64,000 nt of DNA from Promethearchaeota archaeon (GCA_029838195.1 JALGVJ010000006.1:64001-128000); one strand, 5' to 3'. Shown: positions 57,594 through 64,000, counted from the stretch's first letter. Program-made: numbers and translations. Notes: generated by a model not told the origin, from the sequence alone.

Positions 57594-58991
57594 TTATATA
57601 AAATCATTGATTTGTTCTTTTAATCTATTATAAGAAGGAATGGAAAGTCGAATTCCTCCTGCCAGCTTATGACCGCCACCAATTCCTCCAAGTTCTTTTT
57701 TAATTCGAGCTATGATTTGATTCACGCCCACGCCGTTATTTTTTTCCAAAAATTTTCGTGAACAACGAATACTTAATTTAATCATGTGATTTTTCTTTTC
57801 TTCTCCTCCTAAAAAGAGAATTTTATGGGGATCCAAGAGTTCGTTTACGGAACAAAAACTCGTGGTGTCCGACCAATTACTTGGAGGCAACCTATCTCCC
57901 ACTTCAATGAATATAGCTTTTTCAGTTTCCGTTTTAGGAAGATTTAGCACTTCTTTTAAATTATGAGTCAAATTAGAAATATATTCTTGATAGAGACTTT
58001 TAGCTTGCCGGGAGGGAGATTTTTGTCCCGTTATAGAGAGAGCATGATGGATGTTTTTAAAGCAGAGGATATTCAATAAAAGGGCATGTTCAAAAGCAAA
58101 ACTCAATAATCCACTTTTTTTTGGAAGGAGGCAATAATGGCCTCGGTTCTCCAATCCAATTTCTTGCTGAATTTTCTCGATTTCCGCATTACTTAAATTT
58201 ATAACTTTTTTATTCGGATCGATATTTAAATTTCTTAGAAATTTCTTGATCTTTGCATCTTCTTCTCCTCCCAAATCTTTAATGAAGGGCAAAATGCTAT
58301 ATTTTAATCCATTTTTAATGGTTTCGTGCATGGCGCCAAATAAAATCAAGCCTTCTTTATCTTCGACTATTTGTTCACGTACTAATTCTTCATATACTTC
58401 CCGGTTAAATGATTCCAGCTTGTCCATGGGTCTCAAGGAATCTCCCGCAATTCCAATGGCAGTTAGCCAACCTTGAGCGAGGATGCTGGGATCAACTTTA
58501 CGGGCGAATAGATAAACCAGAGTAGCGCCTGCGATGTGGTCTAACCCATCAAATCCAAAAAGAGTAGGATTTAAGAAATGGAGATTTTCCGGATGGGTTT
58601 TTATTTTATCGTAGGATTCGACTTCATGATGATCTAAAATGAAATAATGTTCATATGGGGTCTCTTCTATGATTGGTAATAATTCTTCAAGGTTTGAACC
58701 GATATCCGTGAGAAATAAAGTAGTCTCCTTGGCTTTTTTGGAATCTTTTTTAGGCAGTATTCCTTTTAAATATTCTGCCCATGAGACGGATCGATTATAG
58801 ATGAAATAATCAAACTCTAAATGTTTTTTAAATAATAAATTTTGGATGAGGTGTAAACTGGAGATGCCATCTGCATCATTATGACTGATTAAAATAACAT
58901 TATTTCCGCATTGATCTAAAAAGTGATTTACGGTATTATCCAATTCTGTTAAAAATTTCTCAAGATCAGGTTCTGAAGCCATTAATATCAA
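57594..58991 (-). CDS. DHH family RecJ/Cdc45-like (GAN-type) protein
   Basis: SHNDADG, TDIGS, ILDHH, NP..FG.DG, GGGHKLAGG. Confidence 0.85.
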   Translation of the reverse strand: MILMASEPDLEKFLTELDNTVNHFLDQCGNNVILISHNDADGISSLHLIQNLLFKKHLEFDYFIYNRSVSWAEYLKGILPKKDSKKAKETTLFLTDIGSNLEELLPIIEETPYEHYFILDHHEVESYDKIKTHPENLHFLNPTLFGFDGLDHIAGATLVYLFARKVDPSILAQGWLTAIGIAGDSLRPMDKLESFNREVYEELVREQIVEDKEGLILFGAMHETIKNGLKYSILPFIKDLGGEEDAKIKKFLRNLNIDPNKKVINLSNAEIEKIQQEIGLENRGHYCLLPKKSGLLSFAFEHALLLNILCFKNIHHALSITGQKSPSRQAKSLYQEYISNLTHNLKEVLNLPKTETEKAIFIEVGDRLPPSNWSDTTSFCSVNELLDPHKILFLGGEEKKNHMIKLSIRCSRKFLEKNNGVGVNQIIARIKKELGGIGGGHKLAGGIRLSIPSYNRLKEQINDFI

Positions 58992-59198: not shown

Positions 59199-60932
59199 AT
59201 GAGAAAAGAGCATTTACTTAGAAAAATCGTTTACTTTCTGATAATCACGAGCCTCCTCTTAACATGTTTTAACAACATTAGGGGAGAAGGAGATAATAGA
59301 ATATCTTCTCTAAAAATTTCCCCCCAAGAACCTGTCCTGGAGCCTCAATTATTTTCCAAGGAGGATTTCGAGCCAATTCTTGAGGAAGAACGACAAGGGT
59401 TGGGCTCTGTATCCATTACCAATCTTTTATTTAATGAATCGGGGTTTTTCAACCATTCCGAACAATATCCTGCTTATGATCTAGATCTGAGGACTAAAGC
59501 GCTCAATATCAGTTATGAGAAAACGGAACTCATTAGAACCGTGAAAGAAGCAACCGTGGATGCTTTTGAAGAAGTATCACCGTCGTCTAATATCATCACG
59601 GTGGAATTAAACGAAAGCCTAAGGGTGAAGTATGATACTTCCATCGATCTATTAGAAGGCTATTTAGTATACGGTCCACGATTATATCCCTGTCTATTAA
59701 ATCGCTTGTACGCTCATAATGCCTCTTCTTCAATAAAAGAAGTTTATGAGGGAAATTATACCATCGATGATAGGAAAAACGTGATTTTTTATTATTCCAC
59801 CTTCTTTAACGGAGCTGAACAAGGAGATTTCAAGTTATATCTTATATGGCATTATAATATCACCTTAGAAGATTGGACGATAAATCAAGTAAAAGAAGAG
59901 GACCTTTTCATGAGCAGTTCCGAACAAAACATCACGGCTACCTTCAATTATAATTTTAACGTGTTAGGAAAGAAATTAAAAGGAGAAAAATTAACAGGAG
60001 CCTATCCATTCACCAGTTTACAAGTGGCCGCTGATAATTTAAACGTCACGTTAAGGATCAACATGCCAGATAGAGAATTGCTGGAAAATCATGCATTTAC
60101 CGGCCAAGGATATGTAGGATCCAATAACATCATATATGCCTCTTTTTCCGTTAATAATAGCTTATTCGACATGGATTTCGATGCCACCTTTACCATAGAA
60201 TTTTTAGACCCGGTCAACGTCACATGGGCAATTGATAGATTGATAGAAGGAACGAATTATCGGGAAAGAATCTATTTTCCAAACATCACCTGGGGGCCCG
60301 AACAATTATTCTTAAAATACGTGAAAATTGAAGAAAGAACGATCAGCATCGATCAAATAAAGGAAGTAACCTCTCAATTTGGACGTGTGGTGGAATATGT
60401 CGAAAAAAATTTCACGGAATTTCAACAAGTTGAAGAAAATAGCTTGATTTTTACCGAAAAAGTCATTCAGAGAAGGGGATTAGAAATTACCCTCCCTTAT
60501 TTTATTAAAGGAGAAACATGCCCATTTCGAATCAAGTACGAGCCCTCTGAAGATTTGCGCGTGATCATCACGGATAATATTCGCATGCCCCTTCGAAATG
60601 TGGAAGTTAAAATCCTCTATTATGGCAGGGTTTTCGGCACGTATATTTCTAACACCTTCATTCAACCAACGTCAATTACTAAAACCGATGAGAACGGAGA
60701 AATTTTCATCCAAAATGTTCCTAACGGAGATTATACTGTAATTCTATACGAGCAAGGGACGCCCGTTTACAACTCAACAGTAATGGCTTACAAGAGGGTA
60801 AACTACGTTATAACTGATATATCTCATTTTCCTTTAGTCATTCTTTCCTTTTTAATTCCTAGTGCGATTTTTCTAATCTTGGGCGTGTTAATATATCTTC
60901 ATTATAAAAAAGAGCGTGAAACTCGTACTTGA
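59199..60932 (+). CDS. Secreted, C-terminally membrane-anchored beta-rich surface protein
   Basis: N-terminal signal-like hydrophobic segment, many NxS/T sequons, TDENGE...NVPNGDYTV beta-sandwich, C-terminal TM helix + basic tail. Confidence 0.75.
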   Translation: MRKEHLLRKIVYFLIITSLLLTCFNNIRGEGDNRISSLKISPQEPVLEPQLFSKEDFEPILEEERQGLGSVSITNLLFNESGFFNHSEQYPAYDLDLRTKALNISYEKTELIRTVKEATVDAFEEVSPSSNIITVELNESLRVKYDTSIDLLEGYLVYGPRLYPCLLNRLYAHNASSSIKEVYEGNYTIDDRKNVIFYYSTFFNGAEQGDFKLYLIWHYNITLEDWTINQVKEEDLFMSSSEQNITATFNYNFNVLGKKLKGEKLTGAYPFTSLQVAADNLNVTLRINMPDRELLENHAFTGQGYVGSNNIIYASFSVNNSLFDMDFDATFTIEFLDPVNVTWAIDRLIEGTNYRERIYFPNITWGPEQLFLKYVKIEERTISIDQIKEVTSQFGRVVEYVEKNFTEFQQVEENSLIFTEKVIQRRGLEITLPYFIKGETCPFRIKYEPSEDLRVIITDNIRMPLRNVEVKILYYGRVFGTYISNTFIQPTSITKTDENGEIFIQNVPNGDYTVILYEQGTPVYNSTVMAYKRVNYVITDISHFPLVILSFLIPSAIFLILGVLIYLHYKKERETRT

Positions 60933-61246
60933 TTGTCATATTCGTCGATATGTTGGAAGATTTTTTAAGATTCTTAGAACAACGCATTATGGATGAGGTT
61001 TTTTATGAATACAAAGAGCGCACGAGCTCGGATTTATCAATAAATAATAAAATCGAGATCGTGCTTCACTTCCTCTCGAAATTAGAAAATTTTCTCGTCC
61101 TTTACGAAACAAAATTAACCTTGGAAAATTTCACGCCTTCAGATATAGACCAGCAAATTATCAGGAAATTAAAAGAAGTTTTCAAGAAACACGAGATTAA
61201 ATTAATCAAAGGAAAAATACGGGAAATCTTTCTCTCTTACTCGTGA
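60929..61246 (+). CDS. Hypothetical protein
   Basis: 105-aa ORF coupled (4-nt overlap) to the upstream gene. Confidence 0.65.
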   Translation: MIVIFVDMLEDFLRFLEQRIMDEVFYEYKERTSSDLSINNKIEIVLHFLSKLENFLVLYETKLTLENFTPSDIDQQIIRKLKEVFKKHEIKLIKGKIREIFLSYS

Positions 61247-61347
61247 ATTTTTTGGTAGCCATCGGAAGATCCTTAGGAGCTTTTGAAGATATCGAGTTCC
61301 TTAATATTATTATCATGCTAAGGTTCATTCACGCTAGTTTAGAACAA

Positions 61348-62886
61348 TCAGCTGGCTTCATCTACTTCCATACCATAACCAATCAATCGATACCGCTGGT
61401 TTATCACGCGGGAAATGGCGTAAATAAATCCCTTAGGAGGACAAATCGGGGGATTTAATTTTATCTCGTAGGAATCTTTTAAGATCCTGCTTACTACGCC
61501 TCCCGTCTTTTCTGTCCCGACCACTATCAATAACCTTTCATTATGCTTTAGGGGGTGCACTTTTAACTGCAATTCGCTTCCAATTACCTTATCAAATAAA
61601 GTAATCTTTAGCTTCACCTTATCCTTAATTTCCGGTAAAGCACCTATTTTCCCCGCAATGTTTCCACTTAACGAATCACCCTTCGTCAGAGAGGGATCCA
61701 GCTTTGTACCAATCCCTATTAGCCCTCCTGGCTTGGCTTTCTCTAATAGATTCCTCCCTTGACTTATACTGGTAACAATGGTTCGAATGGGTTGATATCC
61801 ATCTTTTAATCGTAATCCCGGTCGAATTTCTATTTCCTCTCCTACCGAAATCGTGCCTTTTAACACGGAACCCCCTATTACCCCTCCTCTTAAATCTTCT
61901 ATGGACGTTCCCGGCTTATTAATGTCAAAAGACCGGGCCACCAAGAATTGAAAATCCTCATTTTCATCCAATTTCGGTGTAGGTATGATTTCCTCGAATG
62001 CCTTCACTACTAATTCCATGTTGGCTCCAAACACCGCCGATACCGGAATGATCGGAGCGTTCTCGGCTATAGTTCCTTTGACGAATTTTTTTATTTGATC
62101 CCGATTGCGTAAAGCCTGTTCTCTCGACACCGCATCAATTTTATTCTGAATGATGATGATCTTGTCAATCTTCGCAATTTCTAACGCTGCCAAATGCTCT
62201 CTCGTCTGCGGCTGCGGACAGTCCTCATCCGCCGCGATTAATAAACACGCACCGTCCATTAAGGATGCTCCACTTAACATGGTAGCCATTAAAATTTCAT
62301 GACCGGGCGCATCCACGAATGAGATGTTCCTTTTAAATTCTAACTTGCCCTTGCAATTTGGACACGTGAACCGTGGTTGGCCTTTTTCTCTTTTTTGTTC
62401 CGCCATATAGTCGGTTAAATATAAATCGCAAGCAGGACAATATAAAATGGTCGTGTTTGAATATCCTAATTTGATGGAAATTCCACGTTCCTGCTCTTCT
62501 GAATGTCTATCCGTCCAATCTCCGGTAAGAGCTTTTACCAGAGTAGTTTTTCCGTGGTCTACATGTCCTACTAATCCAATATTACATTCAGCTTGAGATT
62601 TCATCAATTCTTTTATATTGGTCTTTCTCTTCTCTTTCTTTTCTTTTTTTTTTGTTTTTACTTTTTCTTTTGGTTTTACCATTTCCCCTTGTTCATTTTC
62701 TATTTGTTTAAGGTAATTTTTTGCGTTTTCAATGTATTTTTGAGCGGTAGATTCGCGGATTCCCTTGATTTTAAGGAGGGTTTCTATTGAGGCGGAGGCG
62801 AGGTCTTCGATGGTATTGATTCCCGCTTTTTTTAGGATTTGGGCGGTTTTTTTTCCAATTCCACTGATTTCTTCTAGAGAGGCCAT
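61348..62886 (-). CDS. eif2g: Translation initiation factor 2 gamma subunit with N-terminal HhH domain and Lys-rich linker
   Basis: NIGLVGHVDHGKTT, RGISIKLGY, DAPGHE.LMATMLSG, PQPQTREH, QNKID, RSFDINKPG. Confidence 0.93.
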   Translation of the reverse strand: MASLEEISGIGKKTAQILKKAGINTIEDLASASIETLLKIKGIRESTAQKYIENAKNYLKQIENEQGEMVKPKEKVKTKKKEKKEKRKTNIKELMKSQAECNIGLVGHVDHGKTTLVKALTGDWTDRHSEEQERGISIKLGYSNTTILYCPACDLYLTDYMAEQKREKGQPRFTCPNCKGKLEFKRNISFVDAPGHEILMATMLSGASLMDGACLLIAADEDCPQPQTREHLAALEIAKIDKIIIIQNKIDAVSREQALRNRDQIKKFVKGTIAENAPIIPVSAVFGANMELVVKAFEEIIPTPKLDENEDFQFLVARSFDINKPGTSIEDLRGGVIGGSVLKGTISVGEEIEIRPGLRLKDGYQPIRTIVTSISQGRNLLEKAKPGGLIGIGTKLDPSLTKGDSLSGNIAGKIGALPEIKDKVKLKITLFDKVIGSELQLKVHPLKHNERLLIVVGTEKTGGVVSRILKDSYEIKLNPPICPPKGFIYAISRVINQRYRLIGYGMEVDEAS

Positions 62887-63019
62887 GGTTAAAATTTAAA
62901 TATAGTAATATTCTTTTAATAGTGAAACTTTTCTCACGCTTTCTATTGTAATGTAATGTGATATTTTTTATTAATTTATTTAAAAACTTAAAGCTATTTT
63001 GTTGAGGGTCGTAAGTTCT

Positions 63020-63259
63020 TTAGCTAATTGTATGGATGGTTTTGATTTTTTGTCCTTGTTTCACCTCTTTTTTATAGGATTCTTTATAACTCACCTGTAA
63101 GAGACTATCGAAGTAAAAAGTGGAGGTTTGATTGCATGCATCATCGGCATGATGGATGTAGACGGGGGCGGGATAACGACTCGTATCAAGATCTTTTGAT
63201 TCGATTTTAAAAATTATTTTTTTATTACACGCAGGGCAAGTATTAAATCGTATGGGCAC
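63020..63259 (-). CDS. Small Zn-ribbon-like hypothetical protein
   Basis: CPAC...HH...C...FYFD. Confidence 0.65.
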   Translation of the reverse strand: MPIRFNTCPACNKKIIFKIESKDLDTSRYPAPVYIHHADDACNQTSTFYFDSLLQVSYKESYKKEVKQGQKIKTIHTIS

Positions 63260-63483
63260 TTCTTGTTCTCTTGTTTAGTTTTAAATGTATTTTATAAAGA
63301 AATAATTGTTTGATTAATTATTAATTTTTTGAGCATTTAGAAAGATTCATGGATTTTTCATGGCATGATTATAAAAAATTGACTGGAGAGGATTCCCTCT
63401 TTTAATTTCAAAAAAAATGATATTAAATTAGTGTGTAATTATTTTACATTATATTGGAGAAAATATTTCATCCATGATTTAAT

Positions 63484-64000
63484 ATGAACCGTATTTGCCG
63501 GAAAAGAAGTATTCTATTCTGTCTCGTTGTACTTATTTTAATGGGTTTCTTAATAATTCCCGAATGGGGCAAAAAAAAAGAAATAATTGGTCCAGCTACG
63601 GCAAGTCAAGGAGTTAGTTTATTTACTGGAACGGAGACTAATGCCATTTCCATTAATGCAAGCGTATTGCCAAAAATAAATAATAGTGCGTTAAATTCTG
63701 CTTGGAAAGACACTACCATTGATATGATAATTATTACACCCGATAAATCTGGATTCATAAATGCCATTACTCCCCTCATGGAATGGAAAAATCAAAAAGG
63801 CGTGACAACAATAATTTTATCTAATTTCTCTAAATATGAAGGGAAAGATACTTCGGAAAAAATTAGGAACATGATAAAATTCTATCATGAAAATCATGGT
63901 ACTCAATGGGTCTTACTGGCTGGCGATGCGGAAGAAGATTTAATTCCTATTAGAAAAGTATATAATCCGGACGTCGTGGAAGTTGGTCAAGGAGAAAGCG
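63484..64000 (+). CDS. Secreted C25 (gingipain-like) cysteine peptidase, truncated by the window edge
   Basis: Not in the ORF track. Signal-like N-terminus, then DMIIITP...PLMEWKNQKGV...EKIRNMIK...WVLLAGD...IPIR. Confidence 0.82.
   Translation, partial: MNRICRKRSILFCLVVLILMGFLIIPEWGKKKEIIGPATASQGVSLFTGTETNAISINASVLPKINNSALNSAWKDTTIDMIIITPDKSGFINAITPLMEWKNQKGVTTIILSNFSKYEGKDTSEKIRNMIKFYHENHGTQWVLLAGDAEEDLIPIRKVYNPDVVEVGQGES

Follow-up and report, generated by a model that had tools for sequence, protein, structure and literature searches.

Why should the strand composition of a single gene reverse part-way along its reading frame? The question is raised by a stretch of 64,000 nucleotides (nt) from a Promethearchaeota archaeon (JALGVJ010000006.1:64001-128000), which we call the window, and in particular by its gene for the translation factor aIF2-gamma (61348-62886, minus strand), a single reading frame of 512 amino acids (aa) recognised from the open reading frame (ORF), its translation and Pfam. 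Coordinates are those of the 64-kb window, position ~14,450 of which is C42:78450 in a genome of 4.5 Mb (94 contigs, 33.5% G+C, 97%-complete); the relatives found suggest that the organism is a Loki-type Asgard archaeon. Within the gene the plus strand passes abruptly from C-rich to G-rich. The change is synonymous, follows the DNA strand, has a definite polarity and is specific to this lineage, and it belongs to a class of similar switches across the genome. With only slightly better than even confidence, we incline to interpret it as a local, lineage-specific footprint of strand-asymmetric mutation left by outward DNA synthesis, and not as a feature of coding or selection.

The encoded protein consists of an HhH domain (aa 1-67), a Lys-rich linker (68-92) and the aIF2-gamma core (93-512), and the flip falls between the first and the last of these. 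Recounting reproduced exactly the plus-strand tallies of the preliminary description of this DNA (60661-60900, G37/C48; 61501-61740, G33/C69; 62701-62880, G45/C25; 63001-63240, G56/C33) and upheld the codon switch that it had reported within one ORF: roughly the first 60 codons favour C endings (GCC, ACC, ATC, CTC), and the remainder are rich in G at third positions. C endings of this first part stop with codon 59 and G-ending codons set in at codon 66, which puts the flip at about 62,690-62,710, on the edge of a T-tract at 62,601-62,700. On the coding strand, third positions hold 4 G and 22 C in the HhH part (codons 1-67), against 107 G and 66 C in the core (codons 93-512; Fisher p=9.3e-6). 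Skew at four-fold degenerate sites, set beforehand as the refuting test, also differs significantly across the switch point (2 G/12 C in the HhH part against 55 G/31 C in the core, p=7.8e-4). At the first and second positions of codons the two parts are alike; the flip is thus synonymous. Such heterogeneity is rare in the genome, as a sliding 67-codon test of third-position G and C, run over the 2,121 ORFs with 250 codons or more, puts the gene in 3rd place. We also computed a synonymous index, the G minus C residual conditioned on amino acid and codon family (hereafter the conditioned index). With a small ORF upstream of the gene included, the flip on this index reaches z=5.8 at 600 bp and 6.3 at 1 kb, ranking 4th of 129 and 12th of 193, respectively, among the C-to-G peaks of the genome.

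The skew extends well beyond the gene on the left. From 59199 to 62688 synonymous sites favour C on the plus strand in a plus-strand gene called as an ORF for a membrane or secreted protein of 577 aa (59199-60932), in a plus-strand 105-aa ORF (60929-61246, likewise an ORF call) and in the minus-strand aIF2-gamma core, with plus-oriented third-position skews of -0.21, -0.16 and -0.24. The conditioned index is -0.25 in the 577-aa gene (z=-2.9) and -0.36 in the core (z=-3.8), and 300-bp bins lie between -0.2 and -0.8 over 59.7-62.4 kb. The preliminary description had called the flip independent of gene direction. This holds for the left arm, where the 577-aa gene and the core are C-rich on the plus strand from opposite orientations; on the right the G-rich genes all lie on the minus strand.

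To the right of the flip the plus strand is G-rich in three successive parts: the HhH segment (62689-62886, minus strand; conditioned index +1.16 +/- 0.25, z=4.6), the non-coding gap between ORFs upstream of the aIF2-gamma gene (62887-63019; G18/C11 on the plus strand) and a minus-strand ORF of 79 aa (63020-63259), whose third positions hold 7 G and 21 C on the coding strand and whose index is +0.46 (z=2.0). The arm ends at a plus-strand gene that Pfam annotates as C25-peptidase-like (63484 onward, of which the window holds 63484-63999): there the first 172 codons have 23 G and 26 C at third positions, and the index is +0.03 over the first 1 kb and then -0.41 (z=-4.0). The right arm therefore covers ~0.6 kb (62.7-63.3 kb), followed by ~1.2 kb that is neutral and then by 64.5-70 kb, where the plus strand is C-rich again. 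At the far left, a fairly sharp change of the opposite kind, G-to-C, lies at ~59,100 in the divergent gap between the 577-aa gene and a minus-strand DHH/DHHA1 protein gene (57594-58982, ORF call), the latter having a plus-oriented conditioned index of +0.19. AT skew does not flip at the aIF2-gamma locus.

The flip is specific to this lineage. It was seen in none of 11 aIF2-gamma orthologues, and in the genome from the same genus, a sister lineage without the flip, the HhH part is instead rich in G at third positions (+0.29). Synonymous changes specific to this genome, polarised by parsimony and read on the plus strand, differ between the arms: the left arm gained C more than G (to-C 42 vs to-G 26; T>C 39 vs A>G 25) and the right arm gained G (to-G 8 vs to-C 1; left versus right, Fisher p=0.009). 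These polarised changes are as expected if the strand directed away from the centre had gained G, chiefly through A>G. Loss of endonuclease V was considered as a cause of lineage-specific A>G and set aside, as this genome and the flip-less sister carry a similar divergent homologue.

The same polarity recurs across the genome. Third-position coding skew is correlated between neighbouring co-oriented genes (r=0.24) and anticorrelated between neighbours on opposite strands (r=-0.20; -0.30 for gaps below 50 bp), indicating a patchy plus-oriented skew with a correlation length of ~1 kb that is independent of gene direction. The preliminary description had proposed a genome-wide skew scan, and at third positions this gives 28 distinct C-to-G sites against 3 G-to-C sites (1-kb arms, z>=4.5; binomial p=5e-6). 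On the conditioned index the counts are 38 versus 12 (p=3e-4), and 19 versus 3 at 600 bp. Since polarity is invariant under reverse complementing, contig orientation cannot produce this excess. Besides those at tRNA genes, strong centres lie in or beside genes for TFB, three MFS transporters, a permease, hdrA/flpD, aEF-1alpha and the second orc1/cdc6; three are in convergent gaps and others deep inside transporter genes. Averaged over genes, neither starts nor ends have a flip (0.03 or less at starts). The aIF2-gamma flip is a strong member of this unusual class of several dozen kilobase-scale switches of one polarity, many of them at tRNA genes. The window holds a second C-to-G flip at ~14,450 (C42:78450; z=5.1), inside the hdrA/flpD pair and 373 nt from a gene start.

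The tRNA genes provide an anchor set (n=15) that was not picked by skew. Around them the conditioned index passes from -0.48 to +0.59 and decays over ~3 kb, and the flip is seen individually at 13 of the 15. Flanking plus- and minus-strand genes have the same sign within each arm, and the arms are symmetric relative to the orientation of the tRNA. AT skew flips weakly here, in the keto direction. Conversely, a tRNA gene lies within 500 bp of 5 of the 20 strongest centres found blindly, compared with ~0.2 expected. In the same-genus genome and in a closed genome of the same order, tRNA flanks show little or no flip. The gene of aEF-1alpha (C22:86052-89015) is the most heterogeneous of the genome, with 8 G and 23 C at the third positions of codons 10-77 and 139 G and 52 C in the rest. 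Adjoining it, an Arf-like GTPase gene (minus strand) and an Endo dU gene (plus strand) are both C-rich on the plus strand despite their opposite orientations. As to the tRNA inventory itself, ARAGORN finds 15-16 tRNA genes in the whole genome and Rfam adds others at flip centres, where ARAGORN gives no call or a wrong label; many tRNA genes of this organism are probably intron-containing or otherwise atypical, to judge from these predictions.

Looking across these patterns, we propose that the strand running 5'->3' away from a centre would gain G, mainly through A-to-G change (T-to-C on the other strand), over ~0.5-3 kb per side and irrespective of the orientation of the genes that are crossed. 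At the aIF2-gamma site the centre would lie at ~62.4-62.7 kb, at the boundary of HhH domain and linker, with a left arm reaching to ~59.5 kb and a right arm to ~63.3 kb. The cause may be DNA synthesis, or exposure of single strands, that repeatedly moves outward from a fixed point. Local initiation, fork restart beyond a barrier and fill-in after resection of a break are candidates, equal in the geometry that they predict. The spectrum of errors or damage would be the same as that behind the leading/lagging asymmetry at the scale of the chromosome.

Several observations count against this proposal. The right-arm polarised counts are small (9 changes). The right arm is short, at ~0.6 kb against a left arm of ~3 kb and arms of ~3 kb at tRNA genes, and it contains minus-strand genes only, which leaves room there for a coding-oriented explanation. 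C-richness of the plus strand over 59-70 kb, in genes of both orientations, is partly common to the same-genus genome, though not to two other genera; because it is partly shared with the sister species, the left arm may be an older regional feature, with only the 0.6-kb island new. The preliminary description suggested searching the switch points for shared motifs, and none emerged: no enriched 7-mer and no AT-rich or homopurine tract is common to the centres. Nor is there an RNA gene at the aIF2-gamma centre by Rfam, ARAGORN (for tRNA) or folding, and the gaps there have no excess structure. At four-fold sites alone the polarity excess of the class persists but is weak, with 24 C-to-G flips against 17 G-to-C at 1 kb and 44 against 22 at 1.5 kb. 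This is due in part to a coding-oriented C bias at these sites (-0.10), from which extra flips of either sign arise where one gene gives way to the next. Finally, the 8-12 G-to-C sites found at the same thresholds represent a non-polar background of sharp flips, and roughly one in four to one in six of the strong C-to-G flips may belong to it.

This background suggests the rival that fares best. A gene body rich in G at third positions and a 5' part rich in C could have come together by chance, without any site-specific process, as an extreme case in a genome of patchy synonymous composition, the oddest spot having then been picked from 64 kb. Third-position skew is indeed over-dispersed between genes (variance 0.027 against 0.012 for binomial sampling), the flips of opposite polarity attain comparable z and are nearly as frequent at four-fold sites alone, and the right side is short, ~145 codons. 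Counter to this, the gene and its flip stand 3rd of 2,121 and 4th of 129 in the rankings above, the flip has the polarity that is over-represented 3- to 9-fold, the non-coding gap carries the same skew, and the lineage-specific substitutions run in the direction expected for each arm. We consider chance improbable, while granting it some weight.

Asymmetry associated with transcription is unlikely. On this view an AT-rich, promoter-like tract within the gene would fire in both directions, and the non-template strand would be exposed along the core by sense transcripts and along the HhH part and 79-aa ORF by antisense ones, possibly with a contribution from R-loops. In its favour, the polarity is that expected if the non-template strand is G-rich to the left and to the right, no other spot of the locus is as rich in AT or as purine-asymmetric as the tract, an in-frame Met stands at the canonical aIF2-gamma start just after it, and tRNA genes and aEF-1alpha are highly transcribed. 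Arguing against this, the flip lies ~190-240 nt inside the ORF and the 5' part of the same mRNA carries the wrong skew; gene starts on average have no flip; three strong centres lie in convergent gaps and others deep in transporter genes; tRNA arms are equal up- and downstream and cross genes of both orientations; and the left arm crosses two convergent genes. Transcription is the weaker candidate compared with outward synthesis, given the position inside the ORF, the centres in convergent gaps, the symmetric tRNA arms and the lack of an effect at gene starts. The known bias that makes non-template strands rich in G and T resembles what is seen in the core, which is G-rich at third positions on its coding strand; it differs in that the flip is away from the predicted start and that the gene's 5' part, the co-oriented ORF upstream and the two convergent genes carry the opposite sign.

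The tract itself deserves comment. The flip zone is the Lys-rich linker (62601-62700), a homopurine tract on the minus, coding strand (T65/A9/C20/G6 on the plus strand) with a pure run of 32 nt; pure runs reaching 30 nt or more number 19 in the genome, this one included. The other pure runs genome-wide (360 of at least 20 nt, 72 of at least 25 nt and 18 of at least 30 nt) have flat skew profiles without a flip, and on this ground the coincidence of tract and flip is probably incidental. A role of the tract as a barrier or unwinding element was rejected for the same flatness and for the lack of enrichment of AT-rich tracts at centres.

Selection on the 5' end of the mRNA would require that A- and C-ending codons, poor in G and U, prevent folding of the mRNA over its first 200 nt and the small ORF upstream, for efficient initiation. 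Third positions of the HhH part are indeed 78% A or C, and the gene encodes a translation factor. We find this hard to credit. Genes in this genome have no general 5' gradient of codon usage past codon 20, and their first 20 codons are G-rich, which also disposes of a general gradient as an explanation in its own right. The pattern is missing in all 11 orthologues, the skew spans a non-coding gap and a separate upstream ORF, and neither the C-rich left arm in convergent genes nor the class centred on tRNA genes would be explained. The body of the highly expressed aEF-1alpha is rich in G at third positions and lacks the codon pattern. Two related candidates were also discarded: codon usage intrinsic to the domain, as 8 other HhH modules of the genome are not C-rich at third positions, and expression-linked codon choice, as the genes richest in G or in C at third positions are functionally mixed (Endo dU, Arf-like GTPase, aEF-1alpha, thiolase, TGT, SfsA, acyl-CoA dehydrogenase).

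Equally far-fetched is a recent import of 62.7-63.3 kb, by recombination from a relative with other codon usage or by gene conversion from one of the HhH paralogues. The genome has many HhH modules, and the segment has sharp boundaries. However, the nearest HhH paralogue is 60% identical and the paralogues are not C-rich at third positions. For the HhH part no relative is nearer than the sister species (74% against 48-63%), and the core shows a proportionate lead (85% against 72-76%); gene order is preserved on both sides. A recent recombination junction, which the preliminary description had named as a possible undoing of its reading, is ruled out by this proportional divergence from the sister and by synteny kept across genera. 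A local inversion, at 59.1 kb or at the flip, was rejected as well, gene order and relative orientation being collinear over 46-68 kb in three other genomes.

Switches of strand composition are a standard computational marker of replication origins, and the polarity seen here, C-rich to G-rich on the plus strand, had been described as that of a bidirectional start with a G-rich leading strand. This genome does show strand asymmetry of the replication type, with the same polarity. The gene orc1/cdc6 (TIGR02928, above cut-off) is present only at C69:63876-64976 and C86:78923-80002, and C69 is steadily C-rich on the plus strand over 65 kb up to the first copy at its right end, just beyond which the main origin likely lies, as judged from skew. 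In a 790-bp gap 3' of the second copy there is a strong but merely local flip (C86:78650). Significant net plus-oriented third-position skew occurs on contigs C38 (z=7.5), C84 (4.7), C28 (4.6) and C42 (3.7), the last of which carries the window.

A classical Orc1/Cdc6-dependent chromosomal origin at the aIF2-gamma site would have the correct polarity and an AT-rich tract to hand, and is nevertheless extremely improbable. Both orc1/cdc6 genes are on other contigs, which agrees with the earlier statement that none is nearby. There are no repeats resembling origin recognition boxes (ORB) in 58.8-63.6 kb, only two-copy short repeats of chance size; the AT-rich tract is the coding Lys-rich linker, and the centre is inside an essential ORF. 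The plus strand returns to C-rich within ~2 kb, and the cumulative skew of the contig peaks at ~59 kb without a minimum at 62.7 kb. Such an origin is excluded as far as sequence can tell. Of the site inferred in the preliminary description, a local point of strand-asymmetric mutation survives; a demonstrated initiation or helicase-loading site does not, nor does an origin at replichore scale, considering the ~0.6-kb right arm and the lack of a cumulative minimum and of ORB-like repeats.

An assembly chimera can be dismissed: conserved genes are typical chimera points in metagenome assemblies, but an independent NCBI assembly encodes the exact protein, with 1 mismatch in 7,539 bases (99.99% identical), and the five-gene order and the fused ORF recur in more than 10 genomes, so that this objection, raised in advance, has practically no chance of being right.

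Returning to outward DNA synthesis, we can compare the flip with known systems. It resembles the skew switch at bacterial and archaeal origins (G-rich leading strand) in passing from C-rich to G-rich on the plus strand, in affecting synonymous and non-coding sites irrespective of gene direction, and in sharing the polarity of the contig-scale skew towards orc1/cdc6 in this genome. It differs in scale and number, with arms of 0.6-3 kb in place of a whole replichore and dozens of sites per 4.5 Mb, and the aIF2-gamma site is without an initiator gene, ORB repeats or an AT-skew flip.

A second parallel comes from error-prone synthesis near breaks or behind restarted forks, as in the break-repair hot zones of Escherichia coli and at RTS1 of Schizosaccharomyces pombe, where strand-specific tracts of kilobases extend outward from a fixed barrier or break; tRNA genes are fork barriers in yeast. 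The outward kilobase geometry is alike. In contrast, these systems are known from experiments, and we are aware of no compositional genome footprint described for them.

Human CpG islands offer a third comparison. There, the ratio of A>G to T>C changes sharply on the two sides, from <1 upstream to >1 downstream, while C>T/G>A is roughly symmetric, and the authors took this to mean that the island is where replication starts (Polak and Arndt 2009, PMC2817419). The dominant substitution type (A>G) and its polarity are the same as in the aIF2-gamma arms. The human asymmetry is 7-9% and constant over hundreds of kb (PMC2817419); the archaeal effect is several-fold, decays within kilobases and is centred on tRNA genes and assorted coding genes.

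In the present case the signature used to mark origins occurs at the scale of kilobases, at dozens of sites in one Asgard genome that include an essential gene and tRNA genes. A full-text literature search brought up no account of short-range skew flips in archaea, Asgard or other, which does not disprove their existence elsewhere. If synthesis does repeatedly start or restart at these footprints, they would amount to a map of initiation or fork-restart sites obtained from sequence only, in a lineage that is central to the origin of eukaryotic multi-origin replication and in which, to our knowledge, replication has never been studied experimentally. Taken further, the pattern might mean that DNA synthesis in this archaeon begins or resumes in both directions from several dozen fixed points (tRNA genes, aEF-1alpha, the aIF2-gamma site and one beside orc1/cdc6). 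A close relative of eukaryotes would then replicate its DNA in a dispersed, initiator-independent way or engage in recombination-primed synthesis, and kilobase-scale A-to-G footprints on the outward strands would make this legible; we offer it as a speculation and regard it as doubtful. If instead the footprints derive from a process of repair or damage, they would record a strong and very recent, species-level shift in mutational regime, with consequences for inferences from codon usage and of horizontal transfer. In either case, annotators of such genomes must not take a local GC-skew flip for an origin.

The locus is itself well conserved. The order of five genes around aIF2-gamma is preserved in more than 10 genomes of the family, across genera. 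In the 512-aa protein Pfam recognises HHH_5 (3e-14, aa 4-56), GTP_EFTU (4e-31, 101-302), GTP_EFTU_D2 (334-399) and eIF2_C (4e-21, 423-506), that is, the domain order diagnostic of aIF2-gamma (GTPase, domain II and eIF2-gamma C-terminal domain) with an extra N-terminal HHH_5. The fusion of HhH domain, Lys-rich linker and core occupies one frame in 12 genomes of the family, with linkers of varying length. In five relatives (G004, G005, G010, G012 and G016) matches to the HhH domain and to the core are in different frames or are parted by a stop, which could reflect a frameshift in the A-rich linker or genuinely split genes. The 79-aa ORF contains a CxxC motif and one further Cys and matched no Pfam family; it is kept directly upstream of aIF2-gamma and on the same strand in at least nine relatives, and this conserved arrangement suggests that the two may form an operon.

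Rearrangements are found beyond the window on the same contig. The pair at 69357-70366 is inverted relative to two other genera, and there are two inverted duplications, of a 173-aa gene pair (C42:133845-135590) and of an acyl-CoA-dehydrogenase pair (C42:138942-142822). Both acyl-CoA-dehydrogenase copies are strongly C-rich at third positions on their own coding strand (-0.40), so that the bias there is coding-oriented. Lastly, the N-terminal HhH module of the aIF2-gamma protein is also present elsewhere in the genome, at the N-terminus of an FKBP-type isomerase, a 133-aa Zn-ribbon protein, two proteins of ~570 aa, a 354-aa protein and RadA.

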